Assembly: GCA_024103355.1 (NCBI GenBank)
Contig: JAGFIU010000043.1
Span: 2,102 to 66,101, forward strand
Source of the DNA: Bacteroidota bacterium
GTDB taxonomy: Bacteria; Bacteroidota; Bacteroidia; NS11-12g; UBA955
DNA: 64,000 nt
Direction of reading: 5' to 3'
Part shown: in pieces, positions 7,830 to 63,991 of the stretch
Numbering within the stretch: the stretch's first letter is position 1
How the letters are laid out: each line of letters begins with the position of its first letter
Translations under genes and position numbers: made by a program
The notes under the pieces: model-generated
What the model saw: the letters and a program-made list of their open reading frames with translations, nothing else
What the model was told of the DNA's origin: nothing
The model's database searches: none

Positions 7830-9185
7830 TTATTCGCTGTCTTTCAAAATTGTTTTAATCTCAGCCATATTAATAACCGGAAGAAATTTGGCAAATAAGA
7901 AGAAAAACGTAAAGAACATTCCAAAAGTTCCCAAGTAAATTCCTATTTCAACCCATGTAGGGGAGTATAACGCCCAACCGGATGGTAGATATTCTCTATG
8001 TAAAGAAGTAACAATAATTACGAAACGTTCAAACCACATACCCACATTCACAACAATAGAAAGGAAGAATATGAACCATGGAGTAGTTCTTGCCCATTTC
8101 ATCCAAAAGAATTGAGGAGCAACAAGATTACATGTCATCATGCTCCAATATGCCCACCAATAAGGACCGGTAGCTCTGTTAAGAAAGGCATATTGTTCAT
8201 ACTCTACACCGGAGTATGCTGCCACAAAAAATTCCGTAATATAAGCCAAACCAACCAATGTACCGGTAAGCATAAGTACCTTTGCCATTGCTTCTAGGTG
8301 TCCGATGGTGATATAATCTTCATAATTTAATACCTTGCGCGCTATTATTAATAATGTACAAACCATTCCAAAGCCTGAGAAAATAGCTCCGGCAACGAAG
8401 TATGGAGGGAAAATGGTTGTATGCCAACCCGGAACCACGGAAGTTGCAAAGTCAAAAGACACAATAGTATGCACAGACAATACAAGAGGGGTTGAAATAC
8501 CCGCAAGAATAAGTGATACTACTTCATATCTATTCCATGTTCTGGTAGAACCTGTCCAGCCCATTGAGAAGAAGTTATACCAAAACTTACGTCCTTTTGT
8601 TGTAGCTCTGTCTCTGATAGTCGCAATATCCGGAATTAAACCTAAATACCAGAAAACAAGGGAAACAGAGAAATAAGTACTAACCGCAAAAACGTCCCAT
8701 AAAAGAGGTGAATTAAAGTTAACCCACAAAGAACCGAAAGCGTTTGGCAAAGGGAACACCCAATATGCACCGACCCAAACCCTACCCATGTGGAAGAGAG
8801 GGAATAATGCAGCACAAAGCACTGCAAAGATTGTCATAGCCTCAGCAGAACGGTTGATAGACATTCTCCACTTTTGTCTGAATAAGAGCAAAATTGCAGA
8901 AATCAATGTTCCTGCGTGTCCAATACCAATCCACCAAACGAAGTTGGTAATATCCCAACCCCACTGAACTGATTTATTTAATCCCCATGTACCAATACCC
9001 ACTAAGGTAGTGAGCGCAAGCGTAAATGCAAGCAATCCAAAGAAGATTACTGCAAGAGTAAATCCTATTTTCCAAGTAGTAGAAGGCTTGTTCTCAATTG
9101 GGCGACATATCTCATTACTCACATCCGCGAGCGACTTGTCCTTGGTAACTAATCGAGGGCGTATTGTTGTTATATTATGACTCAT
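7830..9185 (-). CDS. actC: ACIII subunit ActC (NrfD/PsrC-like quinol-interacting membrane subunit)
   Basis: 451-aa polytopic membrane protein that directly follows actB. Confidence 0.7.
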   Translation of the reverse strand: MSHNITTIRPRLVTKDKSLADVSNEICRPIENKPSTTWKIGFTLAVIFFGLLAFTLALTTLVGIGTWGLNKSVQWGWDITNFVWWIGIGHAGTLISAILLLFRQKWRMSINRSAEAMTIFAVLCAALFPLFHMGRVWVGAYWVFPLPNAFGSLWVNFNSPLLWDVFAVSTYFSVSLVFWYLGLIPDIATIRDRATTKGRKFWYNFFSMGWTGSTRTWNRYEVVSLILAGISTPLVLSVHTIVSFDFATSVVPGWHTTIFPPYFVAGAIFSGFGMVCTLLIIARKVLNYEDYITIGHLEAMAKVLMLTGTLVGLAYITEFFVAAYSGVEYEQYAFLNRATGPYWWAYWSMMTCNLVAPQFFWMKWARTTPWFIFFLSIVVNVGMWFERFVIIVTSLHREYLPSGWALYSPTWVEIGIYLGTFGMFFTFFFLFAKFLPVINMAEIKTILKDSE

Positions 9186-14127: not shown

Positions 14128-14336
14128 ATATAGGAGCAGTTTCTATAAGTCAATATCCTTTTTAGTATTTAGAAAGTAATTTAAAACCTATCTAAATAGT
14201 ATTTGTAAGTGACTAATTATTAACGATATACAGTGTTGCGGAAATTTATATGAATTTTTCTTTCAAATCATCTCTCATTAACTCTCAGTAGCATTCTTAT
14301 CGGAAAATATTGAGAAAATCAATTAAAAAACTTGCA

Positions 14337-15359
14337 TTACTTTGGCTCTCTAGTATTCAAGAGAATTAGCCTATATTCTAAGAAGGTGCCTGCTCCATTA
14401 ATCTTAACAGAGGTTTCCATTCTAAATTCTGAAATATTCCTTCTTAGCTTGTCGAATGTGTGATATTCATCTCTTGAAACAATTATACGAGGTGGAGGAA
14501 TGTTGACCTCTCCTCCTGAAGTCCCTGTTAAATAATTCAAATAATCCTCTGCAAGGCTTTGAAAGTCTGATTCATCAGTTACTGAATTAAAGGAATGTTT
14601 AATTTCATCTCGATTCTCGGAAGTAATATAAAAGATTTCGTCACCTGACTTGCTTATACTCTCTCTATCTTTGAAAGGATTAGGTATCTCACATATAATA
14701 GGGTCCTTTATCCATAGATTAACTCTACGTCCAATTATCGAGAACATATTTAAATAGTAATTTGCAACCACAAGTTCAACTTCTTCAGGTTGTTCATACA
14801 GTTTTCTATATTCATCGTAAGTATTTAAACCTATTTTTTTATTCTCAAATTCTATTCTCAAATTTTGCAATAACGTATCTCGCCATTGTTCCCAATTCTT
14901 TAGACCAATGTAGTTAAATGAATCATCAAACTCCAACAGAACCGGAGCATTTCTTAAGGATTCTCGGGTTTCTAAATAAGCCGTTTTGCTCGGCTTATCA
15001 TATTTCATATAATGTGTTATACCTACTATCCATGTGTTTGAATCGGTATAGGATATGTTCATCACTGAATAAAGCGAATCAATCGTCATATAAATAGGCA
15101 TATCCCTCTCATTCGTATTCAAATTGGTTGTTTTATGAAAATACACAAGCTCCATCCCGTTTTTCCAATTTGGTTTAAAAGTAAAATGCATCGTGGTGTC
15201 AAGCTGAGCAAATGTCTTTGAAGCAGAAAGCACTATGCACATCACTATTAAGGAAGCAATAAAACCGCTTTTGAATGAGACATTGTTGTTCATGAATATT
15301 TCAAAATAAATTGCTGCAAAGATGCAAAAAACTATGCCAAAGTTGCTCCTACTAAACAA
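14337..15359 (-). CDS. Hypothetical secreted protein (the real start is probably the internal Met at about 15293)
   Basis: 340-aa ORF. Only the segment from the MNNNVSF Met onward has a signal-peptide-like hydrophobic region. No recognisable family. Confidence 0.4.
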   Translation of the reverse strand: MFSRSNFGIVFCIFAAIYFEIFMNNNVSFKSGFIASLIVMCIVLSASKTFAQLDTTMHFTFKPNWKNGMELVYFHKTTNLNTNERDMPIYMTIDSLYSVMNISYTDSNTWIVGITHYMKYDKPSKTAYLETRESLRNAPVLLEFDDSFNYIGLKNWEQWRDTLLQNLRIEFENKKIGLNTYDEYRKLYEQPEEVELVVANYYLNMFSIIGRRVNLWIKDPIICEIPNPFKDRESISKSGDEIFYITSENRDEIKHSFNSVTDESDFQSLAEDYLNYLTGTSGGEVNIPPPRIIVSRDEYHTFDKLRRNISEFRMETSVKINGAGTFLEYRLILLNTREPK

Positions 15360-15392
15360 TATTCTACCTTTGCTCCCGATTCAGAAACTAAA

Positions 15393-17369
15393 ATGATATT
15401 TAACAGAAAACAACTCGATGACTCAACGTTAATAGAGTTATATAAAAACCTCATATATCCCCGTATCATAGAAGAAAAAATGCTGATTTTGCTCAGACAA
15501 GGGAAAATAGGTAAATGGTTTTCCGGTATTGGGCAAGAAGCAATTGCAGTCGGGGCAACACTTGCGTTAAAGGATAATGATTATATACTTCCACTGCATA
15601 GAAATCTGGGAGTTTTTACCACTCGAAAAATTCCATTTTCCAAGCTCTTTGCACAATGGCAGGGGAAGAAGTCGGGTTTTACCAAAGGTCGCGACCGTTC
15701 TTTTCATTTTGGTACTAATGAATATCATATAGTCGGGATGATTTCGCACCTCGGTGCAATGGCGGGAGTGAGTAATGGAATCGCATTGGCTGAGAAAATT
15801 GATAAAACAGGCAATATCGCACTTGTTTTTTCCGGTGACGGTGGTACCAGCGAAGGTGATTATCATGAAGCTTTAAATGTGGCTGCTGTGTGGGATCTGC
15901 CGGTTATTTTTCTTATTGAAAACAACGGCTATGGGCTTTCTACTCCCGGCAATGAGCAATTTCGGTGCAAACAATTTATTGACAAAGGGATAGGCTATGG
16001 CATGGAAGCCATACAAATTGACGGGAACAACCTATTGGAGGTGTTTCACACTATCAAAGAAACCGCAGACTCAATCCGACAAAACCCTCGTCCCGTGCTG
16101 ATTGAATGTATTACCTTCAGAATGAGAGGACATGAAGAAGCCTCAGGTACAAAATATGTTCCGCGAGAATTGTTCGAAATATGGGCTAAAAAAGACCCCA
16201 TTTCCAACTATGAAAGCTATCTGATTCAACTAGGTTTATTGAATGAGGCACTTAAAAATCAAATCCACGATTCTTTCAAATCAGAAATTGACAGTGCTGT
16301 TAAAGTAGTAGAAAACGAACCGGATATTATTGCAGATACAAAAGAAGAACTTGCAGATATGTATGCAATATCTGATATCGTTCCTACCCTACCCGACACA
16401 AGCAAACAAAGTGAAAAACGTCTGGTTGATGCAATTTCAGACGGCTTGAAGCAAAGTCTTGAAAAATTTCCTCACTCATTGGTTATGGGTCAAGACATAG
16501 CTGAATATGGCGGTGTTTTTAAGGTTACAGAAAACTTCTATGAGATATTTGGCAAAGAACGAATCAGAAATACTCCCATCACTGAAAGTTCTATTTTGGG
16601 TGCCGGTTACGGCTTATCCATCAAAGGATGGAAAGCGGTTGTAGAAATGCAGTTTGGTGATTTTGTAAGTTGCGGTTTCAATCAAATTGTAAACAACCTT
16701 GCCAAATCTCATTATCGCTGGGCACAGAATGCAGATGTAGTGGTTAGACTTCCCACCGGAGCCGGTGTTGGCGCAGGTCCTTTCCACTCTCAAAGCACAG
16801 AAGCCTGGTTTACCCATGTTCCGGGACTAAAAGTAGTGTATCCCTCAAATCCGTTTGATGCTAAAGGATTGCTCTGCGCAAGCATCGAAGACCCTAATCC
16901 TATTCTGTTTTTTGAACACAAAGCATTGTATAGAAGCATTCACGGAATGGTTCCGGATAATTACTACACCTTACCAATCGGTAAAGGCCGAAAAATCAGC
17001 GAGGGAGATGAACTCAGTATTATTACTTACGGCTGGGCAGTTCATTGGGCAAAAGAAGCTTGTGAAAAAATGCAAATCAGTGCCGATATCATAGACCTGA
17101 GAACATTAATCCCATGGGATAAAGAAATGGTTTCGCAATCAGTACAAAAGACGGGCAAAGTGTTAGTCTTGCACGAAGACACGCTCACAGGCGGTTTCGG
17201 AGCTGAAATTGCAGCATGGATCAGCGAAAACTGTTTTGAACACTTGGACGCACCTGTACGCAGGCTGGGAAGCCTTGATACTCCTGTGCCTTTGGCTAAA
17301 GATTTGGAAAGAAATTTTCTTGGCAAAGCAAGACTGGAAACCGTCCTAAATGAGTTGAGAGCATATTAG
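15393..17369 (+). CDS. 2-oxoacid dehydrogenase E1 component with fused alpha and beta subunits (TPP-dependent; BCKDH/acetoin-type)
   Basis: 658 aa. The N-terminal half has the E1-alpha TPP-binding region (GDGGTSEGDYHEALNVAAVWDLPVIFLIENNGYG). The C-terminal half is E1-beta transketolase-like (EMQFGDFV.., pyrimidine-binding). Fused E1 genes are common in Bacteroidota. Confidence 0.8.
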   Translation: MIFNRKQLDDSTLIELYKNLIYPRIIEEKMLILLRQGKIGKWFSGIGQEAIAVGATLALKDNDYILPLHRNLGVFTTRKIPFSKLFAQWQGKKSGFTKGRDRSFHFGTNEYHIVGMISHLGAMAGVSNGIALAEKIDKTGNIALVFSGDGGTSEGDYHEALNVAAVWDLPVIFLIENNGYGLSTPGNEQFRCKQFIDKGIGYGMEAIQIDGNNLLEVFHTIKETADSIRQNPRPVLIECITFRMRGHEEASGTKYVPRELFEIWAKKDPISNYESYLIQLGLLNEALKNQIHDSFKSEIDSAVKVVENEPDIIADTKEELADMYAISDIVPTLPDTSKQSEKRLVDAISDGLKQSLEKFPHSLVMGQDIAEYGGVFKVTENFYEIFGKERIRNTPITESSILGAGYGLSIKGWKAVVEMQFGDFVSCGFNQIVNNLAKSHYRWAQNADVVVRLPTGAGVGAGPFHSQSTEAWFTHVPGLKVVYPSNPFDAKGLLCASIEDPNPILFFEHKALYRSIHGMVPDNYYTLPIGKGRKISEGDELSIITYGWAVHWAKEACEKMQISADIIDLRTLIPWDKEMVSQSVQKTGKVLVLHEDTLTGGFGAEIAAWISENCFEHLDAPVRRLGSLDTPVPLAKDLERNFLGKARLETVLNELRAY

Positions 17370-27591: not shown

Positions 27592-30500
27592 TTACCACCA
27601 TTGTGTATTATCACTCACATCAAATGCTGAAGCACGCTCTCTGCCTTCAACCTTAAACTCTTCGGATAATTCTTCTAAGTATTTCTCACGTCTCTCAGGG
27701 TTATCAATATTGACATGGTATTGAAAAGTATTACCCACAGGGTAAACTTTCCCATCCCTTACTTCAACAACAACAAGGGCGTAATATTGGAAATCTTTTG
27801 GTGCAAAATTACGAGATTCGGCACTTTTGGTACTTATATACTGATGAATCTCATAATAGAACAATCTAAATTGTTTCCCTTTTGAGTTGACTTGCTCTTG
27901 CGAAATCAGATTAAAAGTATCTTTTTCCAAATCAAATTTAGACCCTGAAAACTCATCTGTTCCATTGATTGTTATTCGGGCCAACATTTCATCATCCAAA
28001 TATTTAGTAGGTATAATATCGAGCCGACCAATATCTTCCATATTTTTATATAGGTTAAATAAATACTTTGGGTTAGAGGCTATTTTATCGACCAAAACCT
28101 TGTTTGGATTAAGTTTGTTAATTAACTGATATTTAACCATCATAATTTGATTAATTTCAGAAGTGATAGAGGTATCATAGCTTTTCACCAAATTAGCGAC
28201 CTCATTGTTTTTGACCTGAGGAAGGAGTAGCTTATATTTCTGTATCAATGTTTCGTTATAAACAGGTGAAGAATAGCTATTATCAGCCTCTCCCACTGCC
28301 TCATCCATTGCCTTGGATATATTATTTTTTTGCTCAAACGCAAGGTATTTCTTCAAGACAAACTCCGACTCTTCTAACAGTTTTGGTAAAAATGGCTCAT
28401 AAAAAGCACCATTAATAATCCCGCTATCAAGCATATTGGATAGGTCTCCTAATATATAGGACTTATACTCCTGAATATGCTCATAATCATACATTTGGGG
28501 GTACATCTGTTTCCACAATTGCATACTGTCATTTCTAAGAGGTGACCAGATATCACTATCACTAACCATCACATAAGGTAAATCTTCATGCATGATTTCC
28601 TTCAATGCATTGATTGCCTTAATATTCTTCTGCGCACAAATTACTTCGATAGCATTTAACTGAATTGGATAATTATTGGGATTATTCAGGTATAATCTTT
28701 TGGCAAACTCAATCAATTTATCATCCTTGAGTTCAGAAAGTTTATCAAGCAATATTTGTTGAACAAACTCTTGCCCCTTCTCTCTAAATGGATAAGTTTC
28801 GATTATTTGGATAACTCTATCAATGTTTGATTTATTGAGTTTTACGAATTCAACGGATGAGATAGCCTTGTTAAACCTGGCACTATCACCTGAAAACAAA
28901 TCATCTAAAAATAAATCACCCTTATTTTCAAAGATTGAAATGCCAAAAGTAGAATCAATAGGTTTAAAACTATTATAAAAAGAATCAATAAATGGTGATG
29001 ATCGATGGACAGAATCTACAAGGGTTCGTAATACATATTGTGCATCACCGCCCTCCTTGATTATATGTCTCAATTTGATAAGCCGCATACTTCCTGTGTC
29101 AGACAAATACAAATCCATGATATGAAGTCCATCCTTTTGGAACCGCACTTGAGAGGACACAGCTAATGTCATGTCTTTTGTTGACTTTCTTACAATCTCA
29201 TTAAAAAGGGAATCAACATCGGGGTAGTAGGTATATTGATGAAATTTTTCAAAAAACACTCTGATTCGTTCACCTGTTTCAGACAAATAAATATACACTT
29301 TTGAGAAGTCTTCATAGTCTTTCCGAGTTTCATAATATCCCAGATATCTTGCACTACTTTCATTGATATCCTTGGAAGTCAGTGTTGAAAAATATAATAA
29401 GGTATCAGTAAATCTCTCAAACGGTTTATGGTTCTCGAAAGGTTCAATTTTAAAGGAATTAAAGAATTTATTTGCGGCTCTTTTGTTCTTATGTGTTTTG
29501 GCTGCAAGTAAATAATAAAAGCCTCCGGAAATAAGCATCCTAAAATAGGTGATTTCACCGCTTTCTCCCGCTTTTGGAACTAGTGAAAAATCAAGACAAG
29601 GGAGTCCTTGCCATTTACCAAGTTTCTTATCTGCAACTTGTTTACTATGTTTTTTGGCAAGTTTTTCAGCGGTTCTTTCCAATTCAAAATTATCTTCTTC
29701 AATATAGTAGAAATCAATTAATACATTGCGTGTCAATAAAAACAAGCTATTTGTTTTGCTGTCATAACCTTGGAAAAGAGGTTGATTATAAACAGCCGAA
29801 ATCGGCAAATCTGAATCAAGCACATGCACAGGTGGCATTTCCACAGAAAATCCTCCATAGACATATTTTGTTCTTTTCCATTCTGTCTGTTTACTTTTAT
29901 CAATAAATTTCAATGTTGAGAAAATCGAATCAGACCAAGGTTCAATAAAATCACCTTTTCCACCCATTTTAAAAATGATAATTTCCAAAGGGGTAACAAA
30001 AATTTGATAGTGTTGCAAATCACCTGACTTTGTTCTGTTTTTTACTTCAATGCCTTTGTAAACACCATTCTTAATTCTTTGTTTTGACAATATTTTTCCG
30101 GGTATATTCTCGAAGAGTAGGCTGTCAATTTTATCAAGATAGATATCGGGTGTAATTTCCGACATTATACTAAAAGTGGCAATTTTGTTAACTGAAAAGA
30201 AGGAACCATTGGTCATCTCTGAACAAAGAAAATGAGTACCGCTGTATGGCAACTCATAGAGTTTAGCCGGCAGATTGATAGCAAACTGACTATCGGGAGA
30301 AACTTGTTTTGTGAGCGTCAAATTGGTTTTGAGTGAGTCATAATATTTTTTGGTTTCAGCCGCAATATCAGTTTTTGTAAAAATAACCGGTCTGACAGTG
30401 CACCCTTTTTTTCGCAAATATTCGATCACACCAAAGTCACCACCCAAATGCGCTGCTCCAACTCCGGCAAAGACAGAATGCCCTTTCATTAGAACAAACA

Positions 30501-31281
30501 TACTATCTGCCATCAAGCGATTGCGTTCATTGAGGAACCAATGGATATAATGGGGTGTTGAGAAGAGATTTTGCAGTTCAAGCACCAAGTCTAAATCTTG
30601 TTGACGATAAGCATCCTGAAATATTTCGCTTATGTCTTGAGTTTTCATTCGTTCTTCAAGCCACAAAGGGATAGGTTTTTCATCTTTTTTATTTTTTCTC
30701 TCTGTTTGAGCAATTCTTAGCAAGTCGTTTGTATGTTTAATATTTTCTAATCCAACCACTGTTCTTCCTGTCTTTGCACCTGCCATATAGATAAACATAT
30801 CGAGATAAGTATCTTCTTCAAAGTCTGCCATATACGGGTCACTTCTAAACTGTAGCGAATTAATCATTACGTCTCTGCTTGCTAAATAAGACCCAATCAC
30901 ATTATTTTGTGGAGGGTCTAAAGGAAATATTTTTTGATAAAAACCCTTGTCTGTATACGTATTAAATGGATAAGCACCAAAATACTCGGTGGCATATTTC
31001 AAATTCATTATTTCATCTAACCAGTTTGTGGGGTTTGATTCTAATGCAATAATATCAGCATGTTTTAGTCCTATAAAAAAAGTATCACTAAGATTAAACG
31101 CAAGTTTGCTGCTCACATGCATTGTTCCGTACAGATATGATTTTTGTCCGGGATTCTGGGGTGAGGTTACCTCCCACAACAAGGACTGATATTTTTTCTC
31201 GCTTGTTTGTGCATTAAGGAAGTCTATCGAATGGCTAAAATAAAATGCAGCTATTGAGAACAGAATAACAATTTTTTTCAT
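27592..31281 (-). CDS. Large secreted protein with an N-terminal TIKI/TraB/GumN-family domain and an unassigned C-terminal region of about 900 aa
   Basis: 1229 aa with a signal peptide. GumN-type motifs are LLWEVTSPQNPGQKSYLYGTMHV and VFAGVGAAHLGGDFGVIEYLRKKGCTVRPV. The rest has no recognised domain. Confidence 0.5.
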   Translation of the reverse strand: MKKIVILFSIAAFYFSHSIDFLNAQTSEKKYQSLLWEVTSPQNPGQKSYLYGTMHVSSKLAFNLSDTFFIGLKHADIIALESNPTNWLDEIMNLKYATEYFGAYPFNTYTDKGFYQKIFPLDPPQNNVIGSYLASRDVMINSLQFRSDPYMADFEEDTYLDMFIYMAGAKTGRTVVGLENIKHTNDLLRIAQTERKNKKDEKPIPLWLEERMKTQDISEIFQDAYRQQDLDLVLELQNLFSTPHYIHWFLNERNRLMADSMFVLMKGHSVFAGVGAAHLGGDFGVIEYLRKKGCTVRPVIFTKTDIAAETKKYYDSLKTNLTLTKQVSPDSQFAINLPAKLYELPYSGTHFLCSEMTNGSFFSVNKIATFSIMSEITPDIYLDKIDSLLFENIPGKILSKQRIKNGVYKGIEVKNRTKSGDLQHYQIFVTPLEIIIFKMGGKGDFIEPWSDSIFSTLKFIDKSKQTEWKRTKYVYGGFSVEMPPVHVLDSDLPISAVYNQPLFQGYDSKTNSLFLLTRNVLIDFYYIEEDNFELERTAEKLAKKHSKQVADKKLGKWQGLPCLDFSLVPKAGESGEITYFRMLISGGFYYLLAAKTHKNKRAANKFFNSFKIEPFENHKPFERFTDTLLYFSTLTSKDINESSARYLGYYETRKDYEDFSKVYIYLSETGERIRVFFEKFHQYTYYPDVDSLFNEIVRKSTKDMTLAVSSQVRFQKDGLHIMDLYLSDTGSMRLIKLRHIIKEGGDAQYVLRTLVDSVHRSSPFIDSFYNSFKPIDSTFGISIFENKGDLFLDDLFSGDSARFNKAISSVEFVKLNKSNIDRVIQIIETYPFREKGQEFVQQILLDKLSELKDDKLIEFAKRLYLNNPNNYPIQLNAIEVICAQKNIKAINALKEIMHEDLPYVMVSDSDIWSPLRNDSMQLWKQMYPQMYDYEHIQEYKSYILGDLSNMLDSGIINGAFYEPFLPKLLEESEFVLKKYLAFEQKNNISKAMDEAVGEADNSYSSPVYNETLIQKYKLLLPQVKNNEVANLVKSYDTSITSEINQIMMVKYQLINKLNPNKVLVDKIASNPKYLFNLYKNMEDIGRLDIIPTKYLDDEMLARITINGTDEFSGSKFDLEKDTFNLISQEQVNSKGKQFRLFYYEIHQYISTKSAESRNFAPKDFQYYALVVVEVRDGKVYPVGNTFQYHVNIDNPERREKYLEELSEEFKVEGRERASAFDVSDNTQWW

Positions 31282-31422: not shown

Positions 31423-33753
31423 TTATTCCTTCACAATCTTGTTGACTTGTCCGGCTATGTTTATGAAGTAAATTCCGCTTACTAATCCTGACAAATCAAT
31501 TTCTAGTATTCTTTTTTCTAATTTGCCTTGCATAACCAATCTCCCTTGTACATCGGTAATCTTATATTCCTCTCCTACTTTCCCCTCGATTTTTGTCAAT
31601 CCTGTTGTCGGATTGGGATATATTGTAAATGGTTGGTATAAATTAATCGGAAATTCAACAAATCTTATTGGACTCAACTCACTTTTGCCATCATAATCTA
31701 CCTGGCGAAGGCGATAATAATTTAGTTTCTTTGGGTTGGAATCAACTAATTGATAATAACTCATTGAATAGATTGTTCCTTTTCCTTGAACAATTCCAAT
31801 AGATTCCCAATTTATTCCATCGCTATTTCTCAATACTTCAAAATGACTATTGTTTACCTCTTGAGCAGTTTGCCATGTAAGCTCTACCCTTGTATTACTA
31901 AAGTCTGGCGTTGCCTGAAAATCAATGAGCTCCACAGGCAACGGAACTGGACCACCCCCTATTGCAAAAGGTGAAAAGGCGCCATTGTAGCCAGTATGCG
32001 TCAAAGTTGTCCCACTTGCACTGCCACTGCCCGATGTCGCTATCTCCCATGCACTTATGCCTGAATTGTAGTGGTTGAGTGTGGGTGTTGCCAACAACGC
32101 TGACTCCTCTCCCGAATTCCAATAAAATTTAAAATCTACTCCACTGCCTCCATTCGCACTGGCTTTGTCTATATCCCATGTACGTTTTACGTGAGGGGGT
32201 ATCAATACACTCCCCGTCAATCCATCTTCATAAGCCTCATCCAATATCCTGATACTAAAAACATCGGCAGAACCTGTGTTGTTTTTTATCTCAATAGGAT
32301 TGTATGCACTGTTACCTACAGGGAACAACAAGGTAGCGCCATTAGCCACATTCATCTTGAGTTTACCGGTTCCGGTTGTTTTCACATAACCTGTTCCGAT
32401 ATTGCTTAGTCCGGTCACTGTCAGATTGTAATTTCCTAAGACAATCTTCTTACCCGAATTAATCATATTGATTACTCCCACTGTTCTGTCTTGGTCTAAT
32501 TCCAAATCCCTGACTACAGTACTGTGAAATTTAAAATTATCACCGGATGCAGGTAAGCCTCCCTTGTACCAATTTCCCGACTTTGACCAATCATTGTCGG
32601 TTGTACCTATCCACTCACATGGGCAATTGGAAACATCTTTACCATTATCACTAATCGTCCAACTCTTGGTAGTGGCTAAATAGTCACGAGCAGATTGAGC
32701 ATATGCTGCGTATTTGATACTTGCAGCTCCTAAGGTTATATTGCTTGGAGCTGTACCTCCCGTTGCCCAACCTATCAAGGTAGCTCCATAATTTGAACAA
32801 TCCATTCCTGAATTACTAAACATACTTACTAAACTTGTTACACTTAACAAATTCCAATTACCTAAATTCTGATTGAAATTACTCGCATTATAAAACATAA
32901 AATTCATATTGGTAACCGCGCCCGTACTCCAACTACTTATATTTCCATTGAAAGAACTTGCATTGCGAAACATAGCACTCATATTAGTTACCTTTGACAC
33001 ATCCCAAGAATTCAAATCTTGGTTAAAACTACTAGCATCATTAAACATTGAATTCATATTGGTGACAGAACCCGTACTCCAAGCGTCTATATTTTTATTG
33101 AAAGAACTTGCATTGCGAAACATAGCACTCATATTAGTTACCTTTGACACACCCCAAGAATTCAAATCTTGGTTAAAACTACTAGCATCATTAAACATAT
33201 AACTCATATCGGTCACAGAGTCAGTTTTCCAACTGCTTATATTTCCATCGAAGGAACTTGCTGAAGAAAACATAGAACTCATATTAGTTACCTTCGACAC
33301 ATCCCAAGAATTCAAATTTTGATTAAAATTACTTGCAATATAAAACATAGCATTCATATTGATTACTGAGCCCGTATTCCAATTGCTAATATCCGCATTG
33401 AAGGAACTTGCTGAAGAAAACATAGAGCTCATATCGGTTATACCTTCTGTATGCCAATTCCAATTTGCGCTTGAACCTTTTAGATTTGTGCAAGATGCAA
33501 ACATATTTGAAAGGTTTGTAACTTTTGCCAAAACCGGAGTATCTGTGGCGGTAATATCCATTCGCGAGCATCCATAAAAAGATTTCACAAAACTCGACCA
33601 TGTACTATCTCCCCATTGGGTGATTAGCTTGAGCGAATCTTTCTGTCCTCCATTATTAAAATAGATTTGCGGGAAAGACCCGTGAATCTCAACCTTATAT
33701 AATTTATCCGCGGTTCCAGTTGTAACAGTGAACGGGCCCGAGCCGGATAACAC
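31423..33753 (-). CDS. DUF285/BspA-type 26-residue-repeat surface protein with a T9SS type-A C-terminal sorting domain. The ORF as called starts at an internal GTG.
   Basis: About 10 tandem 26-aa repeats (..SVTNMSAMFRNASSFNQDLNSWDVSKV..). The C-terminal Por-secretion tail is YPNPTTGLTKIEG...GIYFINIAGQVNKIVKE. The same frame stays open upstream to an in-frame TAA at 33865..33867. Confidence 0.7.
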   Translation of the reverse strand: MLSGSGPFTVTTGTADKLYKVEIHGSFPQIYFNNGGQKDSLKLITQWGDSTWSSFVKSFYGCSRMDITATDTPVLAKVTNLSNMFASCTNLKGSSANWNWHTEGITDMSSMFSSASSFNADISNWNTGSVINMNAMFYIASNFNQNLNSWDVSKVTNMSSMFSSASSFDGNISSWKTDSVTDMSYMFNDASSFNQDLNSWGVSKVTNMSAMFRNASSFNKNIDAWSTGSVTNMNSMFNDASSFNQDLNSWDVSKVTNMSAMFRNASSFNGNISSWSTGAVTNMNFMFYNASNFNQNLGNWNLLSVTSLVSMFSNSGMDCSNYGATLIGWATGGTAPSNITLGAASIKYAAYAQSARDYLATTKSWTISDNGKDVSNCPCEWIGTTDNDWSKSGNWYKGGLPASGDNFKFHSTVVRDLELDQDRTVGVINMINSGKKIVLGNYNLTVTGLSNIGTGYVKTTGTGKLKMNVANGATLLFPVGNSAYNPIEIKNNTGSADVFSIRILDEAYEDGLTGSVLIPPHVKRTWDIDKASANGGSGVDFKFYWNSGEESALLATPTLNHYNSGISAWEIATSGSGSASGTTLTHTGYNGAFSPFAIGGGPVPLPVELIDFQATPDFSNTRVELTWQTAQEVNNSHFEVLRNSDGINWESIGIVQGKGTIYSMSYYQLVDSNPKKLNYYRLRQVDYDGKSELSPIRFVEFPINLYQPFTIYPNPTTGLTKIEGKVGEEYKITDVQGRLVMQGKLEKRILEIDLSGLVSGIYFINIAGQVNKIVKE

Positions 33754-33867
33754 TCCTGACCAACCATTGTTAGAGGCATTCCCTACCTCTTCCCAATAGA
33801 CCTTAAAGTTATAACTGCTTCCTCTCGTAGGGATAATTATCTGTCCACTACTGTTGGCTCGCCATTA

Positions 33868-33975
33868 TACAATAAACGGATCTAATGCCCTTGCATCTGA
33901 TAGTTTTAGTAACAAGAGCAATAACAATCCAAATCGAAAAAAAGTGCGATGATTAAATAACCAAATTATTTTCAT
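33868..33975 (-). other. 36-codon signal-peptide ORF in frame with the BspA-like CDS and separated from it by a single TAA
   Basis: MKIIWLFNHRTFFRFGLLLLLLLKLSDARALDPFIV, then TAA, then the same frame continues as WRANSSGQIIIPTRGSSYNFKVYWEEVGNASNNGWSG into the 31423..33753 ORF. Confidence 0.45.
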
Positions 33976-34138
33976 AAAGTCTATATTTTAGGATTGCGCA
34001 AATATAATCTCACTTTTATTACACAATATTTTATAAATACTTTTTTTTAATACCTTTTTAGTCATCCCAATAGTTAAATTAATAAAACGAGTCCAAACAT
34101 AGCCAAGCATAGTTAGAGCAGTTATGCTTTATTGAAAA

Positions 34139-34176
34139 AGAGCCATTAGGGAAGCTTCCCTAATGGCTCTTTTTTA
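34139..34176. terminator. Bidirectional rho-independent terminator
   Basis: Perfect 32-nt palindrome agagccattagggaagcttccctaatggctct, flanked by A5 upstream and T6 downstream. Confidence 0.75.
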
Positions 34177-34196
34177 TTCTTTTATTTATAAATGAA

Positions 34197-34319
34197 TTAT
34201 TCCTTCACAATCTTGTTGACTTGTCCGGCTATGTTTATGAAGTAAATTCCGCTTACCAATCCTAATAATTCAACAAAAGCTATCGTAATGTTTGTGCATG
34301 AAATATGGAAAAACAAACC
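34197..34319 (-). pseudogene. Orphan 3' remnant of a T9SS type-A CTD gene (last 40 codons plus stop, no start codon)
   Basis: Translates as GLFFHISCTNITIAFVELLGLVSGIYFINIAGQVNKIVKE*. Bases 34197..34256 are identical to 31423..31482, the 3' end of the BspA-like gene. An upstream in-frame TAA lies at 34320..34322 and no ATG is present. Confidence 0.55.
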
Positions 34320-34341
34320 TTAAAGCCATAGAGATAAGCCC

Positions 34342-34349
34342 TATCTTTG
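34342..34349 (+). promoter_or_regulatory. Candidate -7 promoter element (TAnnTTTG) for the 2475-aa gene
   Basis: The sequence tatctttg lies about 22 nt upstream of ATG 34372. Confidence 0.3.
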
Positions 34350-34368: not shown

Positions 34369-37300
34369 GTGATGGCTCTAAGAAAAACATTTATTTTGTT
34401 ACTATTATCAAGTATTCTTATTGGCATCAGCCGGCAAGCAAAGGCACAGTGCGTTGCTGATTACAGCATCATTTCTCGCAGTTGCGACAAAGACACCGTT
34501 CATTTTTCCTTTACCGGCAACGGGAAAAAGTTTCAATGGGACTTTGATGATCCTGCTTCTGGTGTTAGAAACTCTGACACTCTCAGCAATCCAAAACATC
34601 AATTTACTTCAGCAGGTTCCTATTATGTCAGATTGGTTGTTTTTGACTCCGCATGCACTGATACCGTTACCAAATTAGTACAGATATACACAAATCCAAC
34701 CATTGCTTATTCATACTCTAATAATTGTAAAAATCTGATTTCCAAATACAATTCTTCGATTACCATTGATTCGGTTGATTCCATCAGACAGATTTATTGG
34801 TTTTTGAACAATGTACTTATTGATTCAGGAAGCAACATCTCTCACATATTTTCAGACACTGGGATAATAAACCTATCCACAGTTGTTGTTACCGGGGAGG
34901 GATGTACTGACAGCTTTAATAAACCTATAAAGGTATTCCCGGCCCCTGTTATAGAATCAGACAAGTCAAGTGCATGTGAAGATAAGGATATTAATTTCAA
35001 TCTCAAATCCGGTTTTGTACCTGAAATTAAAAATTACAAATGGAATTTCGGTGACGGCTCAATCAGCAGTCAAGCCTCACCTAAATATCAATTCTCTAAT
35101 GGTGGGCTTTACCCTGTTTCGCTTTTGCTAACCTATTCAGACAGCAGCTCCTGTTTATCAAACGCTGATTCAATCAAGATAACAAACAAACCCAATACCG
35201 CATTTCGTCTTTTGAGTGATAGCGTTCAATGTTTTCAAGGAAATCAATTTTGTTTTGAATTTTTGGGCAGGGAAAAGAATTTGAGTTATCGTTCTGTCAT
35301 ATTTGGTGATGGCAATAAGAACAACACTTTCCCATTGACAGACAGCACACTTTATTACTCATACAACGACAGTTTAGGCAGAGTTTATTCAATAACTTAT
35401 GAAGCTATTGACTCAAACGGTTGTTCAAACACAACAACCATTGACAGCTTAATAACACTTCACCCTAAGATCAATTTATTATTTGGTTACAGTAGAACTC
35501 TTGGATGTTTCAGCACTCCTGTATCATTCACAAATTACAGCAACACCACACCTCCTAGCATTATAAAATTCAAATGGGATTTTGGTGACAGCACCCTTGA
35601 CTCTACATCGTGGAATCCAAGTCATACTTATACACAAAACGGAATATTCTCGGTTTCGCTCGAAGTTCTGAGTGACAAGGGTTGTCAAGTGAAAACAACT
35701 TACAACAAAATCATCGAAAATGTAAACTTCAAAGCAGATACTCACTTGGACAGTGTCATTAGTTTTTGTAGAAGCGACAACAAATTTTTCTATAAACAAA
35801 CCCCGATACTCGGTGCCAGCGTACGATGGTATTGGGGAGATGGTGACACCTCTTACACATGGAGTGTAAACAAACATTACAATAACCCGGGTACATATTA
35901 TCCAAGAATAAGAATCTGGGCTTCTAACTGTATTGTTGATACTGTTTTCGATACGATAACCATTACAGGGCCTCGTGCTTTAGCAAGCAATATAATCAAC
36001 CGATATCAATGTCAAATCAAAGACACTATATACTTTACAAACAGCAGTTTATTCGATTTTAACAAAAGCAGAAGTACATTTTGGGATTTTGGTGATATTT
36101 ATGCACCAAGTTGTACGACAAACCTCGCAAAGGGTATCAATGTAGGTATGAATTGTCGATATAGCACCGACAGCATTTTAACCCAACACTATTACACCCC
36201 CGGCAAAGAGCAGTGTTACTATACAAAATTGGTTGTAAGTGATTCCATAATAGGTTGTGCGGACTCAACGTATATAAGCCTTCCGCTAACAGCACCCAAA
36301 GCGGATATAGACCTCTTAGCCACTCCTCCTCGATTAGGAATGAGTCTTAACAAAAATAGAACTTGCCTGAGTGAAGAAGGAGACTATGTCAATGTCTTAG
36401 TTCTAAACTTAAATAACACACAGCCTGCTTGTGCCAGACAACGATGGTGGGTGATGTGGGACTCTCTTGGTGCACGCCAATCAGGCAGCTTTGATTCACA
36501 TTGGGAATCTTATGCCGACTCGCATTACTATAGTTTTGCAAATAAACCTGCCGACACAAATGGATATGTAACTATCGGATTGATTATTGAGAATGGTAGC
36601 GACTCTAGCAACAACGTTTGCAGAGATACGGCATGGTATCACCATTTTTTGAAATTTGAAATTTATGACCCTGAATTTGTTTCAGACTATGACTCAACTG
36701 TACAGTACTGCAAAGGTTCAACTTTTACTTTTCGTTTAAAGGATACAACACAAAAAGCACTTTCTAAAGTAATATGGGATTGGGCTGACGGGAGTTTGTC
36801 TCAACTAACATCAGGAAACCTTACGGCACCTATCAAACACACATTCTATAAGCCCGGAATATACAAAGTTATTGTAACTGTGATTACTGACTCCGGTTGT
36901 ATTGCAACTTATTCAAAGAGAATCGAAGTAGGCTATAACATCAATTTTGGCGTAAGTAATGTTTATTCGTCTTCGGGGCAACGATTTTGTGAGAATACCA
37001 AAATACCCTTATCGTTTGATGTCGGTTATATTGGCACTACACGCAATGAATGGCATGATACCATGCGTTTGAAAGCCGGTAAAGAAAAAATCAGGTGGGA
37101 TATGGGAGACGGTCTTGGTTATCAGGACTTGGGATTTCCGCCTTTTTCCTATCAATACAACAAAGGAGGTTATTATAAAATATCCTTGATAGCTGAAGAC
37201 AGTGTAGGCTGTATGGATACAATGACAGTTCCCGATGCCATTCTTATTACTCATATCAAGTCAAAAATTACAACCTCACAAGACAGCTTTGTTTGTGCAC

Positions 37301-40300
37301 AAGGGATTCAATTCAATTCTAATGTTTCTCAATATGACAGCACAAGCACAGTTCCTCAAGGCAGTGCGGAAACTATTACCTATCGTTGGGAATTTGCTCC
37401 GGGCATACCCTACAACACGTTATCCGATCCTTTTGTTCTGTTGAAAGAAGGTGATTACAATGTTAAACTAAAGGTTACCAATACAACGGGATGTGAAGAC
37501 TCCTCTTTTAAAAGTATAAGCATCATCGGTCCAAAAGCAGAGTTTGTATTTCTTTCCGACTCTATCGGTTGTCAACCCCTGGAGGTTACTTTCAAAAACA
37601 AAAGTAAAGGTGCCACAAATTATATTTGGAGATTCAAAGACAGCAGTGGAAATGTGTTGAACACCGTCTCCTCCGGCAATGTTAGCTTTACTTATCCTCA
37701 GTTTGGAAAATATTATCCGTCTCTTACTGTTCAAGGAACTTATATCAAAAATGGAGTAAGTATTACCTGTTCCAATACTTTTCCTGACTCTATTCCTAAG
37801 CCATTTAGGGAAATTACAGTATTGGAAATCCCCAAACCTGATTTCACCCATGTTACCAACTGTTTCAGCAAAACCACACAGTTTACTAACAAGACTTATA
37901 CAGGTAGTTCAACTCTGAACTCTGTTTATTGGGATTTTGGAGACGGCAGCACTTCTACTGACAACAATCCTTCTCATCAATACAGTGATACCGGAAGATA
38001 TACAATAACATTAATTGCTTATTCTGCAAACGGCTGCTCAGATACATTAAAACGAATGATTGTCATATCCCCTACTCCAATCCCCAATTTTAATTTTACA
38101 AACCAATGTGCCGGAGTTCCCATTCAATTCAAAGATTCAACAAAAACGTTTAATGATGTTATTGTCAATTGGAGCTGGAGTTTTGGCGATAGCACTTTCA
38201 GCAATCTGAATATTGAAAATAAAAGCTATGCAAAAGGAGGTTCTTACAATGTTAAACTGGTCGTTACCAATATGGCAGGTTGTTCCGATTCTGTTTCTAA
38301 AATAGTAAAGGTTCATTATAAACCTCTTGTTAATTTCTCGGTTCCACATACTTGTTCCCATCAAGACTTGGCAATTTCAAATCTGAGCAGTGTTGCAGAC
38401 ACTACACTCTCTTATCAATGGAATTTTGCAGACGGGACATATTCTACAGATTTTGCTCCCTCAAAATCATATACAAATAACGGCAATTACAAAATCAAAC
38501 TGCAAGCATTGAGTGGCTTTGGCTGCGTTGATTCTATTACAAAAAACATTCAAATAAACCCAACGCCTTATAGCAATTTTAATATCAATAGTGCTACACA
38601 GTGTTTTGCCGAACATGAGTTTGTGTTTAGCAATACAACATCACTTGTATCAGGTACATTTTCTTCACTCTGGAAGTTTGGAGATGGGAATACGAGCGTT
38701 ATCAAATCTCCCACACATCAATATACAAGCATAGGCTCCTATGCCATTGACTTGATTACCACCTCTGATTTTGGTTGTAAAGACACCATTTCTAAAAGCG
38801 TGACAGTGCAATCCAATCCATCAGCCAATTTCACTATTGACAAAGTTCAACAATGTTTGCTCGGCAATGCCTTTACTTTTACTGATATTACTGGTACTCC
38901 TAACAGAACATGGCAAATCAAAGGAATTAACTATGCAGATAGTGTACTCAAATACAGTTTTGTTGACACCGGAGTTCACACAATTCGCATGGTTGCCATA
39001 TCAACAAATACTTGTACTGATACAATCTATCGAACGGTAGAAGTGCTTCCCATGCCGATTGCAAAAATTGGTGTAAACAGCCCGGGACAATGCGTAAACA
39101 ACCAAAATTTCTCCTTTTCCGACTTAACAACACTTGCCAAATATCCATCATGGACTCCTTCTTGGGATTTCGGAAACGGGAAAACCGCTGGAATTTCCAA
39201 CCCGACCACAAGTTATGACACTGCCGGATTTTATACTGTTACGCTAAAAGTGCTTTCAAGCAAAGGTTGTGCTGATACCACTCAATACAAAGTTGAGGTT
39301 TATTCTAAACCAACACCTGATTTTGCTATCAATGATGACGAGCAATGTCAATTGAACAACTTGTTTGTGTTCACAAATAAGTCAAAAGTTGCAAAAGGCT
39401 CACTCTCTTATCAATGGACATTTGGTGATGGGGCAAGCAGTATTCTAACCAATCCAAAACACAGCTATACACTAAAAGGAAATTTACCTGTTAAACTCAT
39501 TACGACCAGTTCCTTAGGTTGTGTGGACTCGATTTCGCGAACCATTACTTTGCGAGCAAAACCAACCGCTTCAATAGCAGTAAACAAAGCACAACAATGT
39601 ATCAATCCCAATTTGTTCACTTTCAGCAGTAAGAGTCAAAGCAATGAGGGTTCTTTTGTTTCTTACGAATGGAACATTCCTTCACAGCCAATAAGCAGTT
39701 TGCAAACCAATGACACATTTTTCTATAGTTTTCCAAACTATGGAGCATTCCCTGTTCATCTCTATGTTACAACGAGTTTCGGCTGCGCTGATTCTACTCA
39801 AATGTCTGTTGAAGTTTATCCAAAACCCAAATCTTTGTTTTCTATCAATGATTCTACACAATGCCTTAACAAACAACTATTTTCTTTCAGCAACTTAAGC
39901 ACAATTCCCTACGGTACATTGAGCTATCAATGGACTTTTGGAGATGGCAAAGGCTCTACCGCTAAACATCCTTCTTATACCTTCAACAACGCTGATACTT
40001 TTATTGTAAAAATGATTGCAACCTCAAACAATAATTGCAAGGATACTACCTCTTTGCCCGTGATTGTATATCCCAAACCCTTTGTTAATTTTAACATCAA
40101 CGACTCAGGACAGTGTCTGACAGGTAATCTCTATGAATTAAACAATCTTAGCAACATTTCTTATGGCACTTTATCATATTTCTGGGATTTAGGAAATGGT
40201 AAAACATCAACTCAAAAAGACACACAAATCAGCTACAATGCTTATGGTACATATAAGATTTTATTACAATCAACCTCTAACTTTGGTTGTATAGATAGCG

Positions 40301-41796
40301 TTTCGTATAAAGTAAAAGTTTATCCAAAGCCTACACCTGACTTTGCTATCAACAAAGAGAAACAATGTTTGAATGAGAACCAATATAAAATCAGCTCTCG
40401 TTCCAATATTGCTTATGGTACTTTGACCTATCAATGGCAATTAGGTGATGGCGCAACAGCAAGCGGTGACTCTATAATTCATCATTACAACAATATAGGC
40501 ACCTATACTATCAAAATGGTTTCAACCTCAAACTTTGGTTGTGTGGATTCAAGCAGTAAAGAAATCAGGATTTGGGCAAATCCTCAAAGTGCTTTTGCCG
40601 CCAACAATCCTGCACAATGTATTAATACACAAGATTTTCAATTTATCAATCAATCCCGCATTAATGAAGGCGCTATCGATTCACAGACATGGAATTTTGG
40701 CAACGGAAATTTCAGTAACTCACAATCTCCAAACCAATTTTTCAAAAGTACCGGACGTTATCGAATCAGTCTGATATCTCATTCTGACAGCGGCTGTTTG
40801 GATTCTGCTGTCAACTATATTGATATTTATCCAAAACCCGAAGCCGCTTTTGATATCAATGACACATCACAGTGTTTATATACCAACCTATTTGAGTTTA
40901 CTGACCAATCAAAAGACACATTGAACCTCATCAATTATCGTTGGATATTAGGTAATGACAGTTCTGCTAACTCAAAAAATACATCCTTTAAATTTAATAA
41001 AATTGGTTTTCACGACATAGAACATCAAGTAATATCAGAATTGGGTTGTGCAGACACCATAATCAGAAAGATATATGTAAAGCCAATGCCTGACCCGAGT
41101 TTTGAAAAATTGGATATTTATTATTGTAATAACAAAGGGCCATTTTCATTCAACACAACCACACCGGGTGGAACTTTCTACGGTAAAAACATAGAAAACA
41201 ATCTATATATGCCTCAGATATTGTGGAGAGACACCATCGAATATAAAGTAACCGTAGATGGATGTTTGGATTCAAGTTCTCAGGTTACACAGGTCTATCC
41301 GGCTCCTTCTGTCTTTCTCGGCTCAGACACCATGCTTTGCAAATATGAATCATTGGAATTTGATGTTAGCTTTTGGAACAGCACTTACGAATGGCAGGAT
41401 CGAAATAAAGAGGCAAAATACCTAGTTAAACGTCCCGGATTATACAAGGTTACCGTAACCAATTTTTGCGGTTCTGTTTCGGATTCTGTTTATGTAGAAT
41501 ATGGGGAATATAATTGCCGATTATATCTGCCTACATCTTTTAGCCCAAACAAAGACGGGCTTAATGATTATTACAACCCCATTACGTATGATGTTGAAAG
41601 TTTTCATATCCAGATTTTCAACCGCTGGGGGCAAATGGTTTATGACGGCACACAAAACGACCCCGGATGGGATGGCTCCTATATGGGAATGCCTTGTGAA
41701 CCCGGAATGTTTATTGTCCAAGTTTCGTATTCATACAAATTCAAAAACGAATACCGAAATATTACAGAAAGCTCCCCACTATACTTGATGAAATAA
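34369..41796 (+). CDS. Giant cell-surface protein with about 23 tandem PKD domains and a T9SS type-B (gliding motility-associated) C-terminal domain. SprB/adhesin-like.
   Basis: 2475 aa with a signal peptide. The W-x-F-G-D-G...N-P-x-H-x-Y...G-x-Y PKD signature recurs about every 90 aa. The C-terminal motif SFSPNKDGLNDYY..IQIFNRWGQMVY..WDG matches the type-B CTD. The probable true start is ATG 34372. Confidence 0.8.
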   Translation: MMALRKTFILLLLSSILIGISRQAKAQCVADYSIISRSCDKDTVHFSFTGNGKKFQWDFDDPASGVRNSDTLSNPKHQFTSAGSYYVRLVVFDSACTDTVTKLVQIYTNPTIAYSYSNNCKNLISKYNSSITIDSVDSIRQIYWFLNNVLIDSGSNISHIFSDTGIINLSTVVVTGEGCTDSFNKPIKVFPAPVIESDKSSACEDKDINFNLKSGFVPEIKNYKWNFGDGSISSQASPKYQFSNGGLYPVSLLLTYSDSSSCLSNADSIKITNKPNTAFRLLSDSVQCFQGNQFCFEFLGREKNLSYRSVIFGDGNKNNTFPLTDSTLYYSYNDSLGRVYSITYEAIDSNGCSNTTTIDSLITLHPKINLLFGYSRTLGCFSTPVSFTNYSNTTPPSIIKFKWDFGDSTLDSTSWNPSHTYTQNGIFSVSLEVLSDKGCQVKTTYNKIIENVNFKADTHLDSVISFCRSDNKFFYKQTPILGASVRWYWGDGDTSYTWSVNKHYNNPGTYYPRIRIWASNCIVDTVFDTITITGPRALASNIINRYQCQIKDTIYFTNSSLFDFNKSRSTFWDFGDIYAPSCTTNLAKGINVGMNCRYSTDSILTQHYYTPGKEQCYYTKLVVSDSIIGCADSTYISLPLTAPKADIDLLATPPRLGMSLNKNRTCLSEEGDYVNVLVLNLNNTQPACARQRWWVMWDSLGARQSGSFDSHWESYADSHYYSFANKPADTNGYVTIGLIIENGSDSSNNVCRDTAWYHHFLKFEIYDPEFVSDYDSTVQYCKGSTFTFRLKDTTQKALSKVIWDWADGSLSQLTSGNLTAPIKHTFYKPGIYKVIVTVITDSGCIATYSKRIEVGYNINFGVSNVYSSSGQRFCENTKIPLSFDVGYIGTTRNEWHDTMRLKAGKEKIRWDMGDGLGYQDLGFPPFSYQYNKGGYYKISLIAEDSVGCMDTMTVPDAILITHIKSKITTSQDSFVCAQGIQFNSNVSQYDSTSTVPQGSAETITYRWEFAPGIPYNTLSDPFVLLKEGDYNVKLKVTNTTGCEDSSFKSISIIGPKAEFVFLSDSIGCQPLEVTFKNKSKGATNYIWRFKDSSGNVLNTVSSGNVSFTYPQFGKYYPSLTVQGTYIKNGVSITCSNTFPDSIPKPFREITVLEIPKPDFTHVTNCFSKTTQFTNKTYTGSSTLNSVYWDFGDGSTSTDNNPSHQYSDTGRYTITLIAYSANGCSDTLKRMIVISPTPIPNFNFTNQCAGVPIQFKDSTKTFNDVIVNWSWSFGDSTFSNLNIENKSYAKGGSYNVKLVVTNMAGCSDSVSKIVKVHYKPLVNFSVPHTCSHQDLAISNLSSVADTTLSYQWNFADGTYSTDFAPSKSYTNNGNYKIKLQALSGFGCVDSITKNIQINPTPYSNFNINSATQCFAEHEFVFSNTTSLVSGTFSSLWKFGDGNTSVIKSPTHQYTSIGSYAIDLITTSDFGCKDTISKSVTVQSNPSANFTIDKVQQCLLGNAFTFTDITGTPNRTWQIKGINYADSVLKYSFVDTGVHTIRMVAISTNTCTDTIYRTVEVLPMPIAKIGVNSPGQCVNNQNFSFSDLTTLAKYPSWTPSWDFGNGKTAGISNPTTSYDTAGFYTVTLKVLSSKGCADTTQYKVEVYSKPTPDFAINDDEQCQLNNLFVFTNKSKVAKGSLSYQWTFGDGASSILTNPKHSYTLKGNLPVKLITTSSLGCVDSISRTITLRAKPTASIAVNKAQQCINPNLFTFSSKSQSNEGSFVSYEWNIPSQPISSLQTNDTFFYSFPNYGAFPVHLYVTTSFGCADSTQMSVEVYPKPKSLFSINDSTQCLNKQLFSFSNLSTIPYGTLSYQWTFGDGKGSTAKHPSYTFNNADTFIVKMIATSNNNCKDTTSLPVIVYPKPFVNFNINDSGQCLTGNLYELNNLSNISYGTLSYFWDLGNGKTSTQKDTQISYNAYGTYKILLQSTSNFGCIDSVSYKVKVYPKPTPDFAINKEKQCLNENQYKISSRSNIAYGTLTYQWQLGDGATASGDSIIHHYNNIGTYTIKMVSTSNFGCVDSSSKEIRIWANPQSAFAANNPAQCINTQDFQFINQSRINEGAIDSQTWNFGNGNFSNSQSPNQFFKSTGRYRISLISHSDSGCLDSAVNYIDIYPKPEAAFDINDTSQCLYTNLFEFTDQSKDTLNLINYRWILGNDSSANSKNTSFKFNKIGFHDIEHQVISELGCADTIIRKIYVKPMPDPSFEKLDIYYCNNKGPFSFNTTTPGGTFYGKNIENNLYMPQILWRDTIEYKVTVDGCLDSSSQVTQVYPAPSVFLGSDTMLCKYESLEFDVSFWNSTYEWQDRNKEAKYLVKRPGLYKVTVTNFCGSVSDSVYVEYGEYNCRLYLPTSFSPNKDGLNDYYNPITYDVESFHIQIFNRWGQMVYDGTQNDPGWDGSYMGMPCEPGMFIVQVSYSYKFKNEYRNITESSPLYLMK

Positions 41797-50507: not shown

Positions 50508-50541
50508 AAAAAAAGGCGAGATCAACTATCTCGCCTTTTTT
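50508..50541. terminator. Bidirectional terminator between convergent genes
   Basis: A7, then hairpin ggcgagat / atctcgcc (loop caact), then T6. Confidence 0.7.
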
Positions 50542-63957: not shown

Positions 63958-63991
63958 AAAGCCCATTGAAAAACTCAATGGGCTTATTTAT
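63958..63991 (+). terminator. Rho-independent terminator after the PLP enzyme gene
   Basis: Hairpin agcccattga / tcaatgggct with loop aaaac, followed by a T-rich tract. Confidence 0.55.

Follow-up and report, generated by a model that had tools for sequence, protein, structure and literature searches.

We analysed a window of 64 kb (the whole 64,000-nt stretch of DNA), which belongs to a Bacteroidota metagenome-assembled genome (MAG) and carries gldA, gldF and gldG. Two divergent T9SS cargo genes in the window are separated by an intergenic region of 396 nt, and this region contains an orphan 3' end (the stump) that repeats the last codons of one of the two genes. TAnnTTTG is the -7 promoter motif of Bacteroidota, and the two candidate -7 motifs given below were read from the sequence. 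L015 is the related metagenomic locus used for comparison. In the coordinates of the window, the features are:

31423..31499, minus strand: partner copy of the repeat, the 3' end of the DUF285/BspA-like cargo gene (60 exact plus 17 diverged bases)
31423..33975, minus strand: DUF285 (PARCEL-repeat, BspA-like) T9SS cargo gene with signal peptide and type-A CTD
33999..34006, minus strand: TATATTTG, putative -7-type motif, 23 nt upstream of the DUF285 ATG at 33975
34135..34174, no strand assigned: perfect 40-nt palindrome including A5/T5 flanks, with a 30-nt G+C-containing core
34197..34256, minus strand: orphan core, the last 19 codons and stop of the type-A CTD of the DUF285 gene (60/60 against 31423-31482)
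34257..34273, minus strand: inner, partly diverged end of the stump, codons E-L-L-G-L-V (13/17 match in register)
34291..34314, no strand assigned: non-coding block conserved between the window and L015 (19/24; 0/1000 shuffles attained the score, P<0.001)
34342..34349, plus strand: TATCTTTG, a match to TAnnTTTG and candidate -7 motif, 22 nt ahead of the PKD ATG (the equivalent site of L015 reads TAATTTTG)
34372..41796, plus strand: PKD-repeat cargo gene, 2474 aa, type-B (CHU_C) CTD, divergent

The true start of the DUF285 gene is the ATG at 33975, with a signal peptide behind it, and the encoded C-terminus is a type-A CTD (PF18962, 4e-11; TIGR04183, 5e-10), as the sequence-only reading of this DNA had held for the shared end. 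Codon 37 of the gene is an in-frame TAA at 33865-33867 (read as PFIV*WRANSS, the asterisk standing for a stop), at which the L015 ortholog and the paralog P0002 of the same MAG both have Glu. Because of this stop codon, NCBI annotates only a 776-aa ORF without a signal peptide (31423-33753, MCO6495494.1). The DUF285 gene of the window is a probable pseudogene. Paralog P0002 likewise begins without a signal peptide. Within the DUF285 gene, 150-nt periodic repeats at 32809-33408, 75-79% identical to each other, represent the PARCEL/DUF285 units.

A complete type-B CTD forms the end of the PKD gene, and the gene bears no insertion signature. A model in which the PKD gene is the inverted body of a lost gene was ruled out by this complete CTD. 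Next to the 3' end of the DUF285 gene, a gene at 27592-31281 (minus strand) encodes a 1229-aa protein with a TraB/PrgY/GumN domain at residues 34-298 only, leaving about 900 residues unannotated; a peptide-pattern scan of GTDB species representatives found no relative of this protein.

The 60-mer at the stump was present in two copies in the 64-kb window, at 31423-31482 and 34197-34256, with 0 mismatches, as the sequence-only reading had reported; the chance expectation is none, even with 3 mismatches permitted. On the minus strand, the orphan and the DUF285-gene copies both read GLVSGIYFINIAGQVNKIVKE*, and the orphan core, which is the exact 60-nt part of the direct repeat, translates as ...SGIYFINIAGQVNKIVKE*. 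Similarity of about 75% had been claimed for roughly 20 more bp, in agreement with our in-register comparison: identity was 6/7 over the next 7 bases and 13/17 over the next 17 (chance P 4.5e-5). Further inward, identity between stump and gene fell to background, and recognisable homology ended at 34273. The whole homologous tract is therefore 77 nt with 73/77 identical, and the 4 mismatches are all confined to its inner 17 nt (4/17 there against 0/60 in the core; Fisher p 0.002). On the 3' side of the stop codon, the in-register comparison found no similarity between stump and gene in the window. MAFFT paired an 11-12-nt AT-rich match there, which lies 5 nt out of register; in register the identity is background, and we rejected it as homology.

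The frame of the stump is shut by an upstream TAA and is open for 40 codons, as previously described. The accompanying statement that it lacks any start holds for ATG and GTG but not for TTG, which permits a mechanical 39-aa ORF at 34197-34316. When the 57-residue translation of the stump was compared with a CTD profile made from 199 tails, residues 33-57 aligned with positions 53-78 of the 78-position profile. CTD-like sequence is limited to the final 25-26 codons, and the extra open codons contribute nothing. The remaining open codons overlap the conserved non-coding block at 34291-34314. The translation had no match among NCBIfam models even at E<=10, while the 76-aa CTD of the neighbour, for comparison, scored 45 bits against a cut-off of 23. 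A functional T9SS cargo with a type-A CTD (PF18962/TIGR04183) has a complete sorting domain of about 70-80 residues, which the stump lacks; its ORF has neither a signal peptide nor a passenger domain, and the equivalent frame in L015 is full of stops. The identity of 60/60 and 73/77 nt places the stump as a fragment derived from the DUF285 CTD. These results support the view that 34197-34273 is not a gene but a body-less, promoter-less 3'-end fragment of a type-A CTD cargo gene, and to this extent the sequence-only reading was right. The stump goes untranslated and has neither passenger information nor a coding role.

Such an echo is the only one of its kind in the window. The tail of the other type-A CTD gene matched the repeat at 20/63 nt, which is background, and for each of the other 36 large ORFs in the window the 3' end occurs only once. 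Among 1.84 billion representative proteins, the best CTD was 54% identical, and a metagenome scan with an amino-acid-degenerate pattern of the tail gave 0 matches. A search of the literature for orphan CTD ends found no description. The proposal that the exactly conserved end could act as a recombination handle for swapping passenger domains between T9SS substrates found no support in these searches, in a copy number of two in the window or in the lack of variable content. For T9SS, this argues against CTD-coding ends as cassette-swapping handles, at least at this locus.

A hairpin (34135-34174) sits 22 nt 3' of the stop codon of the stump. Its folding energy is -29.8 kcal/mol (z -6.8), its stem has 20 pairs, and T-runs are found on both strands. 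No perfect hairpin stem longer than this was found in the 64-kb window; the hairpin occurs there as a single copy, and it has the stable G+C-containing stem followed by a T/U run that is typical of a Rho-independent terminator in terms of sequence. The centre of the hairpin is AAGCTT, with no unpaired loop, and the hairpin lies between two divergent promoters. Judged from its structure and position, it is probably a bidirectional terminator or insulator between these promoters. Two more perfect hairpins with A-run/T-run flanks occur at 50509-50541 (between convergent genes) and 63959-63985, which points to such bidirectional intrinsic terminators as a normal feature of the genome. No counterpart of the hairpin was found in the L015 locus. 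The perfection claimed earlier for this terminator stands, over 40 nt with A5/T5 flanks; its designation as the stump's own terminator is doubtful, because it is perfect in the window and missing from L015. The hairpin is lineage-specific, and it does not have to be the terminator of a lost gene. Its perfection suggests current function or recent origin, so that it would be either functional now or recent.

Because the window derives from a MAG and contigs from other samples break in this region, a mis-join of the contig, or its homogenisation at a short repeat, had to be weighed. Logan contig SRR23890175_636165, from the same strain in another sample and 99.98% identical to the window, carries the PKD side and stops at window position 34227, 30 nt into the repeat. 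If the repeat is genuine and position 34257 a true mismatch, a graph with k=31 is forced to branch at this point, so the contig end supports the repeat. The independent assembly thus joins the PKD-side flank to the repeat and breaks exactly k-1 bases in; the junction that it covers is the one between the repeat and the PKD side, not the one between the repeat and the hairpin. With direct repeats, moreover, the order of the window is the only linear path that uses all four junctions, and L015, from another project and another species, has the same architecture. We regard an assembly artefact as very remote. Exact look-ups of the 1229-aa protein, P0001, P0002 and the 36-aa signal-peptide ORF returned no record, hence no independent contig for 31058-34226. 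One practical consequence is that short-read assemblies break at the 60-nt repeat.

Same-strain contigs from two other samples (L001 and L002, 99.96% identical) end at window positions 31058 and 30302. Both ends fall inside the gene for the 1229-aa protein, where no repeat occurs in the window at either position. They could stem from strain heterogeneity or from a repeat located in another part of the genome.

A metagenome scan with the 1229-aa neighbour found one related locus, L015 (Ga0265293_10000075). Its gene order and orientation are the same as in the window: PKD gene, orphan end, DUF285 gene, 1229-aa gene. Amino-acid identity between the two loci is 89% for GldG, 65% for the 1229-aa protein (10001-13663 in L015), 66% for the PKD protein and 54-58% for the DUF285 protein, and 4-fold degenerate sites are 32-38% identical, that is, saturated. 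Between gldG and the gene for the 1229-aa ortholog, L015 has two extra minus-strand genes at 13874-17174 (470 aa and 606 aa), which the window lacks. A GldG scan of a genome collection also found UBA6161 at 70% identity, which is not syntenic past gldG.

The intergenic region between the PKD and DUF285 genes of L015 is 373 nt long and contains no intact gene. It holds an orphan CTD end, ...LRKICFLLCVIK*VEKIVKE*, which matched the tail of the DUF285 gene of L015 at 27/28 nt by blastn (E 9e-9 within the locus) and, over its last 31 nt, at 29/31 by eye; this is the only second copy in the L015 locus. The DUF285 ortholog is broken there independently, by an in-frame stop (L015 7942-7944) and a frameshift (~8421-8472), so the adhesin gene bracketed by direct repeats is inactivated in both species. 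A more distant DUF285 homolog, P0014 (L016), has no upstream echo of its own 3' end.

These observations bear on the origin first proposed for the stump, a recent loss confined to one lineage: the body of a paralogous cargo gene would have been deleted, or pushed aside when the PKD gene inserted, and a fresh stump with a terminator of its own would have stayed behind. The 60/60 identity seems young, a strong terminator follows the stop codon, and the same MAG has DUF285 paralogs (P0002), all of which would suit such an event. Against it, L015 has the same order with an orphan CTD end at the equivalent site and no intact gene, at saturated neutral divergence; the PKD gene is intact, with a complete CHU_C domain, and occupies the same position in both species; and the mismatches are not uniform along the tract. 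Recent loss is accordingly quite improbable. Insertion of the PKD gene as its cause is likewise at odds with L015, and neither the complete type-B CTD nor the lack of an insertion signature supports it. The sequence-only reading had itself named a syntenic relative with the same arrangement and no intact gene as an outcome that would weaken the cassette idea, and L015 is such a relative. Since L015 shares the arrangement, without an intact gene, at saturated 4-fold divergence, the stump predates the split of the two lineages; we infer that it was present in the common ancestor of the window and L015.

The similarity within each genome nevertheless exceeds that between the species. In a four-way ungapped alignment of the last 24 nt, the stump and gene of the window were identical (24/24), those of L015 matched at 23/24, and cross-species pairs matched at 17-18/24. 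Grouping by genome is backed by six sites, grouping of stump with stump by none. Within-genome similarity greater than between-species similarity at saturated neutral sites is the mark of concerted evolution, found here in a comparison of two genomes only. Inherited neutral identity is excluded because the 4-fold sites are saturated, and saturated divergence together with identity within each genome implies that sequence has been exchanged with the neighbouring tail in each lineage since the split. Recombination is strongly implied by the alignment as the homogenising force.

The conserved non-coding block gave a second measure of the position of the stumps. Its counterpart in L015 is at ~7113-7136. 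Situated some 60-70 nt upstream of where the PKD gene starts, the block separates that start from the stump, and it persisted after the echo was taken out of the alignment. It anchors the positional orthology of the stumps, which has support independent of the echo. The distance from the block to the end of the stump's stop codon is 107 nt in the window and 117 nt in L015. Between the two species, the sequence from the PKD ATG up to the stump can be aligned (z 5.6), but not the sequence from the stump to the DUF285 start (z 0.4). The block may be an upstream regulatory site of the PKD gene. In L015, the stretch from the block to the echo is of similar length, and FLLCVIK*VEKIVKE is in register with the CTD profile, though weakly.

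These distances matter for another origin, in which the DUF285 unit goes through repeated cycles of tandem duplication and collapse, and a partial copy of the 3' end arises anew and independently in each lineage. The DUF285 unit between the direct repeats is 2,774 bp, and the structure is formally a tandem repeat (period 2774, 1.03 copies); identity in the window ends right at the stop codon, as a duplication junction might; and extra copies would collapse in short-read MAG assemblies. Independent regeneration, however, agrees less well with orphan ends at comparable distances from the conserved block and with a block-to-echo stretch in L015 that is similar in length and reads, by a weak alignment, as a decayed CTD. 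Neither a duplication junction nor a second body fragment is visible. We consider this origin improbable.

The reading that we favour, with a probability of roughly two in three, is that the stump is an ancestral relic evolving in concert with the 3' end of the neighbouring DUF285 gene; the view that it is ancestral and was converted in both lineages is drawn from two genomes (n=2). The stump would already have been at its present site before the window and L015 lineages split. Intrachromosomal homologous recombination would keep overwriting its 3' end, with the DUF285 tail 2.7 kb away as the donor, either by gene conversion or by unequal exchange between the direct repeats with subsequent collapse. 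As the inner part diverges, the identical block would shrink, giving 60-77 nt in the window and ~31 nt in L015. The clustering of the window's mismatches at the inner edge would be expected at the edge of a conversion tract. The only mechanistic effect of the stump would be that direct repeats flank the 2,774-bp unit, and these are long enough that they could support RecA-mediated deletion or amplification. A classical two-sided conversion tract does not sit easily with an identity in the window that ends, together with the homology, right at the stop codon; this end fits unequal exchange, or duplication followed by collapse, equally well. About 31 nt is near the minimum length usually held to be efficient for RecA-dependent exchange, and for this reason the 31-nt tract of L015 counts against the RecA-exchange reading. 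The survival of a useless 77-nt relic through saturating divergence is also unexpected, given the deletion bias of bacteria.

This survival could instead point to selection on a functional element: an RNA mimicking the 3' end of the DUF285 mRNA, a cis element coupling the two adhesin genes, or a repeat for amplification or excision. The stump was kept through saturating divergence beside a conserved non-coding block; in the window, an undecayed perfect terminator follows 22 nt on, in a layout like that of a small-RNA gene; and no other of the 37 genes has such an echo. On the other hand, no Rfam 15 family exceeded its gathering threshold (the best hits, all hairpin-driven, had 19-30 bits against thresholds of 50-376), and inspection of the sequence found no canonical TAnnTTTG promoter upstream on either strand. 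A promoter for a small RNA, or for an antisense PKD leader running over the stump, was rejected for want of a canonical TAnnTTTG box at a usable position. The terminator is missing in L015, the two stumps share only their last ~24-31 nt, in which each mirrors the gene tail of its own genome, and the DUF285 gene that they match is broken in both species. A selected element is unlikely. There is a slim chance that the stump must track the DUF285 tail in sequence, whether as a sense RNA (stump plus terminator) that would mimic the 3' end of the cargo mRNA or as a direct repeat for RecA-mediated amplification or excision of the adhesin gene. If so, T9SS surface proteins would have, in the tail-tracking stump, a conserved device for regulation or copy number.

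An ancestral relic overwritten by its neighbour can be set against several known systems. Like other gene relics in bacterial intergenic DNA, the stump lacks a promoter and a real gene start and keeps only part of a domain. Decay of an ordinary relic is uniform and its deletion follows soon, whereas the 3' end of this stump stayed identical to its neighbour through speciation. A fragment of 25 codons could thus long escape decay because recombination overwrites it from the neighbouring gene, which makes perfect identity an unreliable guide to how old a short bacterial repeat is.

Certain integrative elements target the 3' end of a gene, which they duplicate, and are flanked by attL/attR direct repeats; here, too, a discrete segment is enclosed by direct repeats that include the 3' end of a gene. 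The difference is that no recombinase lies between or beside the repeats: the sole Pfam-supported gene in 31483-34196 is the DUF285 gene (the other ORFs are <=97 aa and overlap it), and the neighbours of the segment are the gene for the TraB/GumN-domain protein and the PKD cargo gene. The segment is one cargo gene, at the same locus in two species. Silent partial cassettes serve antigenic variation in Neisseria (pilS), Borrelia (vls) and Mycoplasma genitalium (MgPar). With these the stump shares the form of a promoter-less partial copy near an expression locus, a conserved 3' segment and conversion. Silent cassettes come as several partial copies with variable segments, but the window and the L015 locus have one extra copy each; the stump, lacking a variable segment, cannot donate diversity, and the gene in the place of the expression locus is inactivated.

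The other two comparisons concern recombination between genes. Identical nucleotide blocks and domain rearrangement have been described among the T9SS cargo genes rgpA, kgp and hagA of Porphyromonas gingivalis (PMC5266723). As at the present locus, T9SS cargo genes carry exactly repeated DNA from which recombination was inferred. The P. gingivalis blocks are adhesin modules in intact genes and make protein diversity (PMC5266723), whereas here the shared block is the extreme end of the CTD, one copy lacks a gene body, and a new protein cannot arise. In bacteria, paralogs are known to evolve in concert through gene conversion, as in rrn operons (PMC8022953) and in antigen and repeat families of M. 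tuberculosis (PMC13061034, PMC12046097). In those families, as here, copies within a genome are closer than orthologs between species, and homologous recombination homogenises them (PMC8022953, PMC13061034, PMC12046097). The classic cases pair full-length functional genes over long tracts; the present one has a 77-nt non-coding stump as one partner and a tract of only 31-77 nt. The present case is a small, non-coding instance of these known conversion and shared-block processes.
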